Part shown: piece by piece, positions 13,409 to 55,971 of the stretch | Position numbering within the stretch: position 1 is the first letter of the stretch | Layout of the letters: each line of letters begins with the position of its first letter | Origin: Podarcis cretensis | Lineage: Eukaryota | DNA length: 64,000 nt | Direction: 5' to 3' | Assembly (NCBI GenBank): GCA_951804945.1 | Contig: OX638158.1 | Location: forward strand, 44,764,001-44,828,000 | Position numbers and translations under genes: made by a program | Notes under the pieces: model-generated | Seen by the model: only the letters and a program-made list of their open reading frames with translations | What the model was told of the DNA's origin: nothing | Database searches by the model: none

Positions 13409-13653
13409 AAAGGTAAAGGTACCCCTGCCCGTACGGGCCAGTCTTGACAGACTCTGGGGTTGTGCGTCCATCTCACTTAAGAGGCCAGGGGCCAGCGCTG
13501 TCCGGAGACACTTCCAGGTCACGTGGCCAGCGTGACATCGCTGCTCTGGCCAGAGCCAGAGCCGCACACGGAAACGCCATTTACCTTCCCGCTGGTAAGC
13601 GGTCCCTATTTATCTACTTGCACCTGGAGGTGCTTTCGAACTGCTAGGTTTGC
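13409..13653 (-). mobile_element. Sauria SINE, variant subfamily, 5'-truncated
   Basis: Nearly identical to the copies at 27847 and 54843. Confidence 0.88.
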
Positions 13654-27846: not shown

Positions 27847-28210
27847 GGAGGGACGCAGGTGGCGCTGTGGGTTAAAGCCTCAGCGCCTAGGACTTGCCGA
27901 TCGAAAGGTCGGCGGTTCGAATCCCTGCGGCGGGGTGCGCTCCCGCTGCTCGGTCCCAGCGCCTGCCAACCTAGCAGTTCGAAAGCACCTCCGGGTGCAA
28001 GTAGATAAATAGGGACCATTTACCAGCGGGAAGGTAAACGGCGTTTCCGTGTGCGGCTCTGGCTCGCCAGAGCAGCGATGTCACGCTGGCCACGTGACCC
28101 GGAAGTGTCTCCGGACAGCGCTGGCCCCTGGCCTCTTAAGTGAGATGGGCGCACAACCCCAGAGTCTGTCAAGACTGGCCCGTACGGGCAGGGGTACCTT
28201 TACCTTTTTT
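27847..28210 (+). mobile_element. Sauria SINE, variant (young) subfamily, full length
   Basis: 12-bp TSD TACCTTCCAAAT (27835-27846 / 28211-28222). Confidence 0.92.
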
Positions 28211-34197: not shown

Positions 34198-36051
34198 GTA
34201 TCAATGTATGTGGAACTAAGTAAGAGGGTTAGGACAGCAGTCAGGCAGAGACACTTGGTGACAAAGAGGGAGGAACCACTAACAGGAATTGACTGGGCAC
34301 AAACAGTATAGAGACAGATCAGGCAGGACAGAAAAGGTTAGCAGTTTGATGGATGCTTGTTTAAAGAAAGTTCTTTGTTTTATATTACTCCTGCTTGATT
34401 ATTAATATAACTAACACTGCTTAAAACACCCAGTGCGGCTGGTTTATGCAAGAAGAATACTCCCACTTTAAGAAGGGTTTTCCTTTGCAACCTGGCTTTT
34501 TGCAAATAATTCCCCACCTCCCACCCCCAAGTGTGGTTTGAAGCCATGCATGCAAAGGAAGAAGGAAAGGAAAGGAAAGGTTGGTTTTCTGTGAAGTTGG
34601 GTCATTTGATATCATAGTGGTGCCAGGTGATTGATAGGTGGCATATTTGAAAGTAGCCCACAGGGTTGGAGTGGAGACTCAGGATTCAGCCTGCCCGCTG
34701 GATTCTTCCCCTCACCCCTGTCACAGATGGATGTGCACTCAGTGGAAGCACAGGTCAATTATTTGCTCTGTATGCAAAAATGTCCTTATTATAGTATTCT
34801 GTGAAGAAGCCGCATTGCTGATTATCAAGAGAGATTGCATTACCAATGTTTAAGTAAAGATGGGGGGAGAAGCACCCTCCAATGCAGACACAAAGACTGG
34901 ATTAGTTAATCACATTGATGGTCTGCATGAATTAATCCTTGTGCCAAGCTTTTATTTAGAAATAAGAAACTTCATTTCCATATCAATGCTTAACTTTTCT
35001 AGCCATGGCAATTATTCATAACATTTGAACTCTTGCTTCTTCTTTTTCCCCTTACGCATATTGGCATACAAAAAAGAGAGAGGCTTTTTTGCCTTTCCAA
35101 AGATAAACTTTTCAGAACTCAAAGAGGTAAATGCAATTGAAAGTTTGAAAGAAGTTTTTTTAAAAAAAAAATTGAGAGTTTGTACTCTGGAGCAGCACTG
35201 AATTCAGTAAGACTGGGCTAGAATAAATGATTTGAGGATGGCAACTTGAAATCAGTTGTGCATAAAACTAAACAAATTGTCGCTTGTGGCAGTTGACAGT
35301 TTCCCACAGATATTTGTTATAATCCTTTAAAAAATGCTTTTAGAGTTGGGGGGGGGGTATCTAGGAAACATGATTATGGCATGTACGGTACTTTGCACAG
35401 TATTTTCTATGTAAGGAGAAGATAGGTAGTAACATACCCAAAGGTTCACAAAACAACTATGATGAGAGTGAAAGGTGTAGGAAGGACCAAATAGATTCAA
35501 GGTAGAGATGGGATCAGTGTTTTGACATCTTTGGTACTTGATGTGAAAAGTACACACAGGTTCCCATATCCCCGTTTCCCATCTTTTGACTGGTTCCCAT
35601 CTCTGACTGTTCATTTTTATTCATTTATCTTGCAACACAAAATGATGTTCAGTCTGTGGAATTTGCTGTCTGGTCTGGCTGATCTGTCTTTATAGTAAAA
35701 ATAGCCTTCATGGGGAAAAGGAAGAGAAGAAATTGAAGGCTGCAGAGATTCAGAAACATTTCAGTGAACTTTTGATTACAGAATGGTGAAAATGGCAGGA
35801 AAAGGAACTTTGGGAAACGCTTAGGGATATAAGGTAATCTCTAGAATCGGTGCTTTGAATGTTTCATGGCACAGTGGAAAGTGGCACAAAGGCAAAGTTT
35901 ATTGTTACAGTGGTCACCATCCACACTATACGCTTAAAGCACTCTTACACTATTTTAAAAGTAATGGCTTCCCCCAAAGAACCCTGGAAACTGTAGTTAA
36001 GTAACTATAGTTACTCATGTTTAGCACTGAAATCATTGGAGCTTAAGCTAG

Positions 36052-36877
36052 TGTCAGAGCTGCCTCTAGATCCCAGCTCACAGAGGACCAACGCTAGGCT
36101 GTAGTAATGTACAAAAGTCTTTATTGAAGTTCAGTTTCCATTTCAAAGCCACAGCGTGCAGCCCTACGTCTTAAACCCTAGATCGGCGAAGTCCCGTCTG
36201 AGTCTCCTCCCCTATGACACCAGTTTAAGATCCTAGCCCTGCTCCACCTTTTACGCTGCTCTCTCCTCCTCTGGGTCCCCCTGCCCGCTGGGGCATTGCC
36301 CTTTCTGGACTCTTCCGACGCTGAGTCGCTTAGCTCCTCCCCCTCCCTCCGGCGGGCTTTAGGACCCGGTTCCCAATCCTCATTCTCTGCTGTCCCGCGC
36401 TCCTGTACATTTGAACTTGCCTCTCGCGCCAACCCAGTGACCTTTCTCCTAACCGTTACACTACTTCGGTCACTGCTTCCCTCTTCCGGGACACTGGCCG
36501 GATCTGACCTCTCCTCCGTTGTCCGACTTTCTGATGGAGGCGTGGTCAGCCCTGCCTTATCTTCTCTCCCTGGTGGGGAATGCACTGGCCCCGATCCTTG
36601 GGACTCTTCCCCCCCACTCTGCTCTGGTGGGGAAGCTGGTCCTGATTTCCAGCTACTGCTCTGGGAGTCCCTGCTGCCCCCTTGCTCCTGGGGCGTTCCC
36701 CTTGGGAACCCCCTACCCCTGGCCACTGGCGCCCCCTTCTGTGAATCTTCCGATTCGCTGGAGAGGCTCATGGAATCCCTCGGTCCACTGTCCTCTTCTC
36801 CTACGCTCCCCTCGGATTCTTCCCCTTCGCTCTCCATCTCCTCTCTTCCCTGTGCCTCTGCTCCTGAGCCCCTGACA
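36052..36877 (-). mobile_element. Solo LTR (826 bp, Gypsy-like) with an ORF in U3
   Basis: Termini TGTCAG...CTGACA; perfect 5-bp TSD GCTAG (36047-36051 / 36878-36882); AATAAA on - strand at 36120-36125. Confidence 0.9.
36178..36837 (-). CDS. LTR-internal ORF, 219 aa from ATG (frame open to the LTR edge); Ser/Glu/Gly-rich with an Arg-rich C-terminal motif; function unknown
   Basis: ORF track; I read 13 further stop-free codons (VRGSGAEAQGREE) up to 36876. Expression unproven. Confidence 0.4.
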   Translation of the reverse strand: MESEGEESEGSVGEEDSGPRDSMSLSSESEDSQKGAPVARGRGFPRGTPQEQGGSRDSQSSSWKSGPASPPEQSGGEESQGSGPVHSPPGREDKAGLTTPPSESRTTEERSDPASVPEEGSSDRSSVTVRRKVTGLAREASSNVQERGTAENEDWEPGPKARRREGEELSDSASEESRKGNAPAGRGTQRRREQRKRWSRARILNWCHRGGDSDGTSPI

Positions 36878-38800
36878 GCTAGTAATTATTTCAAATGGAC
36901 TACTCTAAGCATATCTGAATCGAACCCTTGAGTACAAGGTGGCCTGGGAGCAAGTCTTACGCAAGCCCGTCTAGTTGTCGAAAGAAGATGCATGCTTCTG
37001 AGACACAAGGGCAATTCTTCATAGCAACTAAACTGAGCCTTCATGTTCTGCTGATTAGCAAACACCAGGGACTACTGGGATTACCGTATACCCTCCTTGT
37101 GAGTTCTCTGTTGGACTAAGCTGCTTTCAGCGCAACCTAGCAAGGCACCTTTTCTGAGTGCAATTGAGTCCCTAATGCATCCAGGCAGGTGGACCTTAGC
37201 AACACGGATATGTATCTGAATTAATTAGCATGATAAAGAAAGAGAGGGAGCTATTCATAGAAGGATCCAATGAAAGTGGAGCGTGTTTAGCCTGCATTCG
37301 GCTGGCACAGAGGCAGACCTTCTGTTAATCCCCTGCATCCTGCACCTGAGATGGTTCGTTATGCTACTACTGCCTTGGCTCCTTTCGCTGTTCTCAGACA
37401 ACAGGTCTTCTGAGATTGGACAACACAGAGAGCTGGGGAGAGAGCTATTAAAGAGTGTGAAGGAAAGAACTCATAAACAGCAGGAAAGCTGGTGGTGAGT
37501 CACTCTAGCATGAGTGCATTAAGAGAAATCCCCTTAGGGGTTGTTTCAGAAGCATCATCTACAGGGAAAGAACCATATCAGACAAACCTATTCTGCTAAG
37601 ATGCCGACAAAGCCACTATTACAGTGCTTTATTATGCCTGCTTGTTGTATGCCAAGACCTTACCTCATTAGGATACACGTACTGAGTATCCACAAGAGAA
37701 GACAAACAAAAGGAGCAAAACTCTCGGCAAATATCTTTATGGCTGAAATTCATTCATTCAGTTCTGCCTGGCTGTATTCCCAGGACTCCTTCGTCTGTAC
37801 ATTAGGATCTGCATATTGCATCCACTTAAAGGCCTTTTTTATGTACCGTTGTTCTTTTTATGACTTTCTTTCTGGAGCACTGTGGGGAAAGCATTTGTTC
37901 TCATTGCTTCCACACCTATGAATTAAGTGTTAAATAATAAGGACAGAAGAGTTCCCTGGGAAGAAATGTGCACCGTTCCATCCATTGGCAGTTTAGGCGT
38001 TTATCAGGATTTAATTCAGTCACTGTTAGCAATCGGTTATTATTATTTATTAAATTTCTATACAATATAAAACCACAAAAATACATAGCATAGTAATAAA
38101 CACACCCACACACCAGTTTAAAAGGCCATAGAATGTTTAATTACCTAAAGACCTGGGAGAAGATGAATATTTTTGCCTGGCATCTAAAAATATGCTCCAT
38201 GCCTGACAAAGTCTGGATCTAACCCACTGAATGATTTGGCCAGTTTCAGAAGAACCTCCTGCTTACTGAGTAAACAGGACTGCCACGGACTGTAAATTAA
38301 CAGAATTTCTATGTAGCTCAGGCAATTAATTTTCAGAAGATGGAATCCGTGGTTCTTTAAAATAAATAATTTTGCCCTTGCTGTTTTACTGTTGACACCT
38401 GCAGTCATAGTTATTTGAGATTATCAATACTGAAGTAGTTAAGCTAAAGATTTATCTCATGGTGAATTAACATTCTTAATGTGGGAATAATATTCTGCCT
38501 AGCTGTAAAATGCCTGAATTAAAGCATGTCCTATGGGAGGCTATGCTTTATTATAAATGCATTAGAATCTGTTGCTTAGAAATCAATAAACATCTCTGCA
38601 AAGTCTGAGATACCAGTAAGATGGAAATCATTGCATCATTTTAACTAATTGTGGTAAGTATGATATATGGTCACTTTAGACATCATAGGAGACTGGCGTT
38701 AAGCACACACAGCAAGTGAGGAAGAGGAATGAGAGTGTTTGGATATTAATGGAATCTCAAGTCAAAAAACTAAGAAGTGCTTATTTAAGCAGTGGCTACT

Positions 38801-52716: not shown

Positions 52717-52943
52717 CAGTGGTACCTCTGGTTACGAACTTAATTCATTCCGGAGGTCCATTCTTAACCTGAAACCATTCTTAACCTGAGGTACCACTTT
52801 AGCTAATGGGGCCTCCCACAGCGCATGATTTCTGTTCTTATCCTGAGGTAAAGTTCTCAACCCGAGGTACTGCTTCTGGGTTAGCGGAACCTGTAACCTG
52901 AGGTGTTTGTAACCCAGGGTGTTTGAAACCTGAGGTACCACTG
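52717..52943. mobile_element. Tc1/mariner-type MITE abutting a second copy
   Basis: TIRs intact; separated from the next MITE by only 2 bp (TC). Confidence 0.9.
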
Positions 52944-52945
52944 TC

Positions 52946-54531
52946 CAGTGGTACCTCGGGTTACATACGCTTCAGGTTACATACCCTTCAGGTTACAGAC
53001 TCTGTTAACCCAGAAATATTGCTTCAGGTTAAGAACTTTGCTTCAGGAGGGAACCACATTTTCAGGAATTCGTTAGTAGAAGTATGGGACAGGTATAAAA
53101 ATCTTTTGGAACCAAGAGTTCCACACTGGCTATCCCCATTGGAGGTTATGAGTGTAAAGAAAATTAATATGAGAGGCAAATGGGTTACGTATGGTGAATT
53201 GGTAATTAAAGAAGGAGGAAAATGGAAATTAAAACCATATGAACAAGTTAAAGATCATGTATATGATTGGTTGCATTATTTCCAGGTAAATGAAATGTTT
53301 AAAAAAGACATAAAAGAAAATGGTTATGTAGAAAAAGATTCAAAGTTCCAAATAGATATAATAAATAATGAATGCAAAATTTTGTCAAAAATGTTTAAGA
53401 TATTGTTGGAATGGTATACGAAAGATGAAGAGGTTAAATCGGTAATGATACAATGGGCCAAAGATTTTGGGTATAATATTCAATTTGATGATTGGGGAAA
53501 ACTGTGGAAAGAAAACTTAAAATTTACTGCATGCACGGCATTGAAGGAAAATGTTACGAAAATGTTGTATAGATGGTACATCACACTGGTAAAACTTGCA
53601 AAAATATATAAGACATGTAATAAGTGTTGGAAATGTAAAGAAAAAGAAGGAACGTTTTATCATATGTGGTGGGAATGTAAGAAAGTGAAGAGTTTCTGGG
53701 AAGCGATATATAATGAATTGAAAAAGATGTTAAAATATACTTTTGTAAAGAAACCAGAAGCTTTTCTTTTAGGGATTACAGGAAAAGAAATAAGAAGAAA
53801 GGATTGTAAACTTTTTCAGTATGCAGTTACAGCAGCAAGAATTTTAGTGGCCCAGAAATGGAAACAAGAGGAAGCTTTTCTTTTAGGGATTACAGGAAAA
53901 GAAATAAGAAGAAAGGATTGTAAACTTTTTCAGTATGCAGTTACAGCAGCAAGAATTTTAGTGGCCCAGAAATGGAAACAAGAGGAAATACCGACGATAC
54001 AAGAATGGAGAATGAAACTGACAGACTATGCAGAACTGGATAAACTAACTGGGAAAATTAGATATGTGTGAAATCAAAAGTTCATCGAAGACTGGGGAAA
54101 GTTTGTAGAATATCTGAAAAATGTATGTGAGGTGCAAACAATGCTAGTGGGGTTTCAAGAAGCACTGTAAAAGTTTAAGATGTATTGTTAAAAAGAAATA
54201 TAAAGGGGAGGGAAGTCAAATGGCAATACAATGAAGGGAATGCGTATTGAAGAATAATTATGGATGATTACCAGAGAAGCTGAAGGAAGTCCAAAAAGAA
54301 TTAATTTGTTAAAATTTGGATAAAATTGTATAATTGTGTTGGAAAATTAATAAAAATTTATATGAAAAAAAAAAAAGAACTTTGCTTCAGGACAAGAACA
54401 GAAATTGTGCTCCGGCGGCGCAGTGGCAGCAGGAGGCCCCATTAGCTAAAGTGGTGCTTCAGGTTAAGCACAGTTTCAGGTTAAGTACGGACCTCTGGAA
54501 CAAATTAAGTACTTAACCTGAGGTACCACTG
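52946..54531. mobile_element. Tc1/mariner-type MITE interrupted by L1
   Basis: Halves 52946-53048 and 54375-54531 are colinear with the family. Confidence 0.9.
53049..54374 (+). mobile_element. 5'-truncated L1-clade LINE (ORF2 C-terminal part, 3' UTR, poly-A)
   Basis: 18-bp TSD AAGAACTTTGCTTCAGGA (53031-53048 / 54375-54392) at a TT|AAGA site; CWKCKEKEGTFYHMWWEC; AATAAA plus poly-A; TGA at 54069 interrupts a frame that continues to about 54169. Confidence 0.93.
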
Positions 54532-54842
54532 TACATTGTTACAATTAATAGTATTTTTTATTACAGCTGGAAGGAGCTAAACCATTTAATAGGTAAAAAA
54601 AACCCAATTGGTCACATTGGAGTTTTTCACAACAGGGAGCCTCTGTGGATACCATAGCACTGTTGGATTCCTGATCAATCTAGATGGAGGAAGTCCAGAT
54701 CTTACAGCATGGTCATTTCAAAGAGGAGCTTGTTCCCCACAGCAGTGCAGCGTTGGAGTCCAAGGCATCTCTCCCATCCTGCCTTCAGCCAGCCTGCCAA
54801 AGAAGAAGACTCTGTCTTGGTTCTCCCTTCTCCTTCCCATAA

Positions 54843-55198
54843 AGGTAAAGGTACCCCTGCCCGTACGGGCCAGTCTTGACAGACTCTGGGGTTGTGCGCC
54901 CATCTCACTTAAGAGGCCAGGGGCCAGCGCTGTCCGGAGACACTTCCGGGTCACGTGGCCAGCGTGACATCGCTGCTCTGGCAAGCCAGAGCCACACACG
55001 GAAACGCCGTTTACCTTCCCGCTGGTAAGCGGTCCCTATTTATCTACTTGCACCCGGAGGTGCTTTCAAACTGCTAGGTTGGCAGGCGCTGGGACCGAGC
55101 AGCGGGAGCGCACCCCGCCGCAGGGATTCGAACCGCCGACCTTTCGATCGGCAAGTCCTAGGCGCTGAGGCTTTAACCCACAGCGCCACCTGCGTCCC
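54843..55198 (-). mobile_element. Sauria SINE, variant (young) subfamily, full length
   Basis: Near-identical to 27847-28210; TSD TTCCCATAA. Confidence 0.92.
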
Positions 55199-55971
55199 TT
55201 CCCATAACACCTTGCTAAAGACACTCTTTTCCTGCCACCACTCTCACACACCCCATAACTTTGGTACCCTTGGTCTGCCCAGGCCCCTCTTAGATGAACA
55301 CCTTTTGTAATGTCAACACCTTGGCTTATCCCTGGGGCTAGTCCTGTGAAGCTGCCTGGGCTTGTGGTCCTAAATGGAAAGCAACAGTGCTTGGCTTAGT
55401 TTTAATTGACCGAACTTTGCTTACTTCATGAATTTATTAGTTTGCTCAAATTTTAGCTCTTTGCTGACTCTAGAGATTATGGTGAGTCCCCTTCCACAAA
55501 CACATAACAGATGCTTACAGTTGTACATGTCAATGACAAAATGTGTAATTTCTTTAAATTTCTTTTTATATTGTCCCCTTACAACACCTACCCTAGACTC
55601 CTAGTCTGTCCTCCTAGTCTGGCAGCCTTGATATACCTGGCAATCTGTCACTCCCATGTAAAATCTTGTTCTGGCATCACCAGTTTACTTTGGAACCTAC
55701 ATACAGTGCAGAACAGAATCCTTCATGCAGTATTCTTCCTGGATTTTTTCATAATTCCATGGGGTATGTATTGTATAGAACAATAACACCAGCCCACTCA
55801 CTCCTTTGCCAACATAATTCTACCCTAAAGTTCAATTACTGTGAACTTACTTAAGTTACCTTACGTTCCAAACCAGTATCTCTAAAATTGTAGCATGTTC
55901 AAAGTAAAGGTTGTCTGTGTTCTGAGACTACCATAGACTATAGGCATGATCCATATAAACAACTATCTGAC

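Follow-up and report, generated by a model that had tools for sequence, protein, structure and literature searches.

The long open frame of a lizard solo LTR is very probably the tail of a chromovirus pol gene

The window, a 64,000-nucleotide stretch of contig OX638158.1 of Podarcis cretensis, contains on its minus strand a solo LTR with the ends TGTCAG and CTGACA, flanked on both sides by GCTAG as read on the plus strand (Table 1). The first-pass annotation, made from the letters alone, had described a clean solo LTR with this 5-bp target-site duplication (TSD) and, on its sense strand, a stop-free frame of about 232 codons that ends shortly before AATAAA and holds an in-frame ATG at 36837; all of these features, with their coordinates, are borne out. 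The frame runs to a TAG at 36180–36178, covers 85% of the LTR, and is separated from the AATAAA by 52 nt. It is open also for 3 codons of flank, and has a second in-frame ATG at 36771. The basic stretch GTQRRREQRKRWSRAR corresponds to codons 200–215; its first position is G in the window copy and R in most other copies displayed.

Table 1. Features of the solo LTR and its flanks (window coordinates).
Feature	Position	Strand	Detail
Solo LTR, Tf1/sushi-type chromovirus, subfamily A	36052..36877	-	826 bp
Target-site duplication, copy 1	36047..36051	.	GCTAG
Target-site duplication, copy 2	36878..36882	.	GCTAG
232-codon frame plus stop	36178..36876	-	In a 3' LTR, very probably the end of pol (C-terminal tail of integrase); an orphan in the solo copy
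Basic motif ending RRExRKRxS...LxW	36220..36279	-	Predicted helix; also in a lineage with 60% Pol identity
In-frame ATG	36835..36837	-	Codon 14; upstream of the putative transcription start
TATA-like TTAAA	36224..36228	-	29 nt before the putative transcription start
11-nt self-primer	36189..36199	-	Complementary to the PBS behind 5' LTRs; putative start of R and of the transcript
AATAAA polyadenylation signal	36120..36125	-	
237-codon antisense frame	36218..36931	+	Shares third positions with the sense ORF

On the opposite strand, a 211-aa ORF had been reported. A long frame is indeed present there, but its length is 237 codons from stop to stop. Antisense frames of at least 211 codons arose in 50 of 3000 dinucleotide shuffles, and the natural one is broken by stops in subfamilies A, A2 and B1. 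It has the same N/S ratio as the sense ORF, the third positions being common to both, and is a by-product of that ORF. Elsewhere, the window is crowded with many older SINE and MITE-like repeats. It also holds young SINE-like copies, 98–99% alike and in both orientations, at 27849–28207, 54841–55199 and 13409–13553, and a 389-codon open frame at 52902–54071 (+), which we take to resemble the 3' end of a LINE ORF2 and which contains a 114-bp exact tandem duplication at 53757–53984.

The LTR belongs to a Ty3/gypsy chromovirus of the Tf1/sushi type in a lacertid lizard; the family is young, has a high copy number and lacks env. A search of the genome with the LTR met 2411 candidates; 40 of them were scored, and all of these are at least 99% identical. 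Across the first 30 loci, a 5-bp TSD accompanies 23 of 31 LTRs and a PPT lies upstream of 2 of 31; four of the 23 TSD-bearing LTRs represent one insertion within a tandem duplication. At that site (G000:C6:48.55–48.61 Mb, L031–L038), a single solo-LTR insertion recurs four times at a spacing of about 14.5–14.8 kb, in a tandem duplication of host DNA. Further subfamilies lie 7–19% from the window copy, with LTRs of 757–830 bp. In keeping with a lacertid host, relatives carry Podarcis labels, and a PSIP1 exon in the same genome has 99% identity with a protein labelled Podarcis muralis.

Whole elements measure 6.5–6.7 kb. Gag (377 codons in intact copies) and pol occupy two overlapping frames, with a −1 overlap that carries GGGAAAC/T; Gag-Pol would be made by −1 frameshifting at GGGAAAC. 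The pol order is PR-RT-RH-IN, an SH3/GPY region, a weak chromodomain and an acidic linker, followed by the PPT and the 3' LTR, and no env frame was seen in the whole elements examined. The chromodomain behind the integrase matches PF00385 with an E-value of 2.8e-4 and 21.2 bits, under the 25.1 cut-off, and in a weak alignment to CDYL2 (E 0.32) its cage aromatics are replaced; from its sequence, it appears to be a decayed chromodomain that has lost the aromatic cage. Beyond it Pol extends by about 410 residues, 232 of them LTR-encoded. Domain order, the position of the putative chromodomain after the integrase and the lack of env are shared with the Tf1/sushi chromoviruses (V-clade: Sushi-ichi, Amn-ichi/ni/san; Metaviridae), as is an LTR 5' end of the form TGTYANR, given in PMC3601003. 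The lizard family differs from them by the apparent loss of the cage and by the long, partly LTR-encoded extension. Our tree of Pol relatives comprised lizard-type rows only. One copy of subfamily C (L207) combines a C-type linker and LTR with an integrase and chromodomain near those of subfamily A, a mosaic which suggests that recombination may swap tails; the same alignment included L195 and L208.

In six natural copies (L289–L292, L294 and L301), picked for a long frame, a single open pol of 1563 or 1591 codons ends inside the 3' LTR. The first two elements read are out of frame at the PPT; others are continuous. For a junction census we picked copies by their upstream pol tail, which avoids junction bias, and 92 of 100 loci were scored. 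The junction was in frame in 15 of 30 subfamily A copies, 23 of 36 in B and 11 of 26 in C, this being the commonest state in each; after four segmental duplicates were dropped, 48 of 88 junctions were in frame (p = 6e-5 against one third). Shifted junctions are off by one to a few bases, in differing G runs, and junction and LTR frame are both intact in only 27 of the 92 copies. The same Pol-LTR fusion is found in the Podarcis muralis-labelled proteins P0008 and P0009, at 60–65% identity, and the shifted form in P0011 and P0013. The first-pass annotation had taken the ORF to be, probably, the end of a gene with its start within the element and a frame that crosses the PPT, and had proposed full-length elements as the check; the census and the six whole copies agree with it, the gene being pol and the tail an integrase extension. 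We hold with high confidence that, in full-length copies, the LTR ORF supplies the final 232 codons of Pol and is as such a part of the element's anatomy. A separate observation concerns L105 (G000:C16:24.94 Mb), an LTR that is not preceded by a PPT and whose frame extends, uninterrupted, 466 codons into the flank; this is a chance in-frame fusion with sequence at the insertion site.

Shifted copies are no more diverged from their nearest neighbour than in-frame ones (median 0.017 for both), a result that gives no sign of the tail being required in cis. Segmental duplicates of one insertion differ in G-run length, and an internal G run differed between the 5' and 3' LTR in two of four flagged elements, a third pair sharing the longer run. 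Because duplicates, and the LTRs of one element, differ in this way, much of the G-run shifting postdates insertion or stems from assembly. Short-read contigs over the PPT junction gave no indel at a 1% share and are too short to split real G-run changes from assembly error. Mobile masters with a short tail were considered and rejected: nearest neighbours share their frame state in 49 of 92 cases against a null of 46 (p = 0.33). Shifted siblings form only one cluster, which goes back to one insertion that segmental duplication has multiplied and whose copies vary in run length.

The LTR ORF is under purifying selection. A codon model fitted to 25 intact LTRs gave an omega of 0.43 (2dlnL of 64 against omega 1). 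This equals the value for the acidic linker (0.43), and is a much weaker constraint than that on the integrase (0.18); the chromodomain scored 0.21, these three being estimated on 14 copies. Third positions are the most divergent, and the 0-fold/4-fold ratio is 0.35–0.72 in the ORF frame versus 0.70–1.85 in the other two sense frames. Because the LTRs of the codon model had been chosen as intact, we added the tail-selected copies to the selection test and compared shared with private changes in 83 of the 92, dropping four duplicates and five copies with large deletions or interruptions. Private changes, at 135 N (8 of them stops) to 56 S, are near neutral (transitions 0.95, transversions 0.71), whereas those common to at least three copies number 124 N, with no stop, to 129 S (0.39 and 0.34, respectively; Fisher p = 4.7e-6 for shared versus private N/S). 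Subfamily-wide indels, though few, measure 3 and 63 nt within the ORF and 1–2 nt behind it. Both measures singled out by the first-pass annotation, dN/dS and the frame bias of indels, come out on the side of a coding sequence.

These results also bear on whether the frame is a by-product of the purine-rich, T-poor U3 of a young family. The U3 is 68% purine and 11% T, the antisense frame is long too, and shuffled frames are themselves long, with a mean of 118 codons; even so, when the first 700 nt were dinucleotide-shuffled 3000 times, the length of the sense frame was reached in only 11 cases. A compositional origin is further opposed by the three-base periodicity, the omega value and the contrast between shared and private changes, and by the occurrence of the same build in three lineages whose LTRs are mutually unalignable. 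We consider it extremely improbable.

Behind the 5' LTRs, an 11-nt complement of LTR bases 679–689 takes the place of a tRNA PBS. It pairs with the LTR at 11 of 11 positions in 10 of 12 elements, PBS and 5' R co-vary in four sequence variants, and TTAAA lies 29 nt upstream of the self-primer in 11 of 12 elements and 28 nt in one. In this the family is again like Tf1/sushi elements, whose PBS pairs with the 5' end of the RNA rather than with a tRNA, according to PMC4600332 and PMC6317226. From the base pairing, we infer a transcription start at LTR base 679, window position 36199; the first 11 nt of the RNA would pair with the PBS and prime reverse transcription, and U3 would act as promoter in the 5' LTR and as coding region in the 3' LTR. 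The ATG at 36837 lies 638 nt upstream of position 36199, and since the putative start precedes the stop codon by only 19 nt, the ORF would be U3 and the ATG would lie off the LTR's own RNA. The first-pass annotation had proposed that this ATG could let solo LTRs express the peptide; with the start so placed, the solo LTR probably cannot make it by itself. Such a copy would be born by LTR-LTR recombination, its frame kept only through youth.

A different source for the peptide would be a separate accessory protein that could bind RNA like Rev or Rex, either translated from an ATG in the PPT, by way of splicing or of an internal RNA start, or cut out of Pol by the protease. In nearly all copies of subfamilies A, B and C, the PPT does contain an in-frame ATG, 4 nt short of the 3' LTR, which would be immune to G-run shifts. 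A splice-donor-like GTAAGT follows the 5' LTR. However, the ATG and GTAAGT belong to the PPT and the PBS, a related lineage (E/F, below) has GTG in place of the ATG and no donor-like word, and in intact copies pol and the LTR frame form one uninterrupted frame. HIV Rev and HTLV Rex contain an arginine-rich motif, and HIV nef and MMTV sag are ORFs that overlap U3. The LTR peptide resembles these in its short Arg-rich predicted helix and in coding that overlaps U3, but differs in that it is the end of pol, shows no Leu-rich export signal, belongs to a chromovirus rather than a retrovirus, and has no sequence match to Rev or Rex in Pfam or the PDB. The 'Rev-like' label of the first-pass annotation is therefore unsupported, and the likeness, as far as sequence can tell, stays compositional only. 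We regard a separate accessory protein as quite improbable.

The tail (copy L301) is 17% Ser, 13% Glu and 14% Gly, with 12% hydrophobic residues. A low-confidence single-sequence fold (mean pLDDT 43) gave its LTR-encoded part no structure except a helix over the basic motif. The LTR peptide as a whole matched nothing in Pfam or the PDB, and the ESM Atlas returned only chromodomain look-alikes scoring below 0.8.

A genome search with a distant relative found two further groups, E/F and D. Lineages E/F (L360–L374), another young group of chromoviruses, mostly show 99–100% identity between paired LTRs. They share about 60% Pol identity with the window-LTR family and have LTRs of about 400–410 bp. 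In 14 of 14 elements, chosen for long frames, Pol extends, in the same register, into the 3' LTR by about 100 codons, and the 11-nt PBS complement is present in 13 of the 14. Their tails end in RRExRRRxSxKxLLCW or a close variant. This basic motif aligns ungapped to RREQRKRWSRARILNW of the window family, at the same distance from the self-primer, and uses different codons (for example AGC versus TCC for Ser); over the last 45 residues the likeness has a shuffle p of 0.002 for F and 0.02 for E, and over the whole peptide it is not significant for E. Lineage D (L306–L335, L356–L357) has about 50% Pol identity and an intact chromodomain cage. Its Pol enters the 3' LTR for 115–120 codons (also given as 117) and has PRRSARLKA at its end; of 26 junctions scored, 13 keep the frame, the query having included the junction. 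The tails of two Anolis-labelled proteins and of P0014 resemble read-through, as judged from protein alone, and one Anolis-labelled tail has no full match in the Podarcis cretensis genome.

The conserved basic motif helps to weigh the possibility that the tail, while being the end of pol, is a near-passive spacer, with selection acting only to keep it open and poor in hydrophobic residues and with terminal conservation that reflects the TATA box and self-primer. Over seven windows, omega ranges from 0.27 in the basic motif, the lowest, to 0.67, with two windows at 0.60–0.67; in-frame deletions are tolerated, a 63-nt and a 36-nt block being absent in some subfamilies, and about half of the junctions are shifted. 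Because the TATA-like box and self-primer share their bases with a conserved Leu and the final codons, part of the conservation is at the DNA or RNA level. The basic motif, however, lies upstream of the TATA-like box and is kept at 60% Pol identity with different codons, and the changes common to at least three copies include zero stops. On balance a passive spacer seems unlikely.

Between the chromodomain and the PPT, subfamilies A and C have a single F-x(7-10)-FxGF stretch (6 of 4000 shuffles) with a Ser/Thr-rich linker; the accompanying helix is predicted with low confidence, and FxGF also occurs in RT. Lineages E/F have two such stretches after the chromodomain, with acidic linkers (0 of 4000 shuffles), and the two Anolis-labelled proteins one each; D and P0014 have none in this interval. 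The layout is like that of TND-interacting motifs (TIMs), which bind LEDGF/HRP2 and comprise a helix, an acidic or phosphorylatable linker of 8–16 residues and FxGF, as set out in PMC9987994. The window family, whose one stretch is upstream of the LTR, differs from TIMs in that its linker is not acidic. Among five lineages, FxGF is found in three whose chromodomain is damaged or missing, and is absent from the one with a full cage; P0014, with a partly damaged chromodomain yet no FxGF, breaks this pattern. RRSARLKA in the LTR-encoded tail of lineage D agrees in 7 of 8 letters with the HMGN nucleosome motif RRSARLSA (PMC12487698), and the window-family peptide contains no RRSARL.

Copies bearing internal sequence are concentrated near contig ends. 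Within 1 Mb of an end, and at both ends, lie 57 of 135 scored pol-tail hits, against an expected 2.4%; the figure for LTR-peptide hits is 17 of 134. These counts drew on 149 and 147, respectively, of 150 rows, with contigs C15 and C19 unscored, and some end-proximal pol-tail hits are subtelomeric segmental duplicates. Centromere targeting was considered, but internal-bearing copies lie near both contig ends, and subtelomeric retention or duplication explains this equally well.

That Pol can run into the 3' LTR is known from plant CRM elements and some Bingo families, according to PMC3059260 and PMC3605345. The closest known case is plant CRM (group A; Beetle, CRR/CRM), in which the LTR encodes the CR targeting motif. 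CRM has a plant host and a tRNA-Met PBS, whereas the present family has a lizard host, a self-priming PBS, the remnant of a chromodomain ahead of its PPT and copies that cluster at both contig ends, not one; in a Pfam search, which included no CR profile, the LTR peptide had no hit that would tie it to the CR motif. Ty1 integrase has a large disordered C-terminal half (PMC8487063), which is reported to carry nuclear-import and tethering motifs (PMC7459421; bioRxiv 10.1101/2019.12.18.879569). Ty1, however, is a copia element whose tail is not LTR-encoded and whose partner is RNA polymerase III. A literature search outside most subscription papers, supplements and Repbase (original Sushi/Amn descriptions) found no report of LTR-encoded tails or FxGF in vertebrate chromoviruses, and the accessible parts of PMC3601003 and PMC11011659 make no mention of an LTR-encoded tail. 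Apart from a real coding overlap under selection, which varies a design already known, the solo LTR is ordinary.

By analogy with the Ty1 integrase tail and the CRM CR motif, the lizard tail would stay on the integrase, its terminal basic helix being predicted to serve nuclear import and chromatin tethering. Such a putative role for an LTR-encoded, disordered integrase tail is one that we favour by a narrow measure; the reading as a whole, of an LTR-encoded disordered integrase tail acting in import and tethering, we consider likely. More speculatively, squamate chromoviruses may have swapped chromodomain targeting for a modular disordered tail, in which a TIM-mimicking FxGF recruits LEDGF/HRP2, the lentiviral tether, and an LTR-encoded basic helix, HMGN-like in one lineage, anchors to nucleosomes; we offer this tentatively, as the less probable outcome.

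The insertion-site choice of vertebrate chromoviruses, the source of RTL1 and PEG10, is largely untested. Three lizard lineages place 100–232 Pol codons in U3, and their candidate host-binding motifs are readable as short peptides. Pol coding in the LTR explains the long ORFs in thousands of solo LTRs, which gene predictors call proteins, and every solo LTR, with its frame open from base 2 onward, offers a substrate for fusion with host genes. If the LEDGF/HRP2 reading of the tail were true, vertebrates would have a counterpart of the CRM CR motif, and these elements would have come to LEDGF independently.
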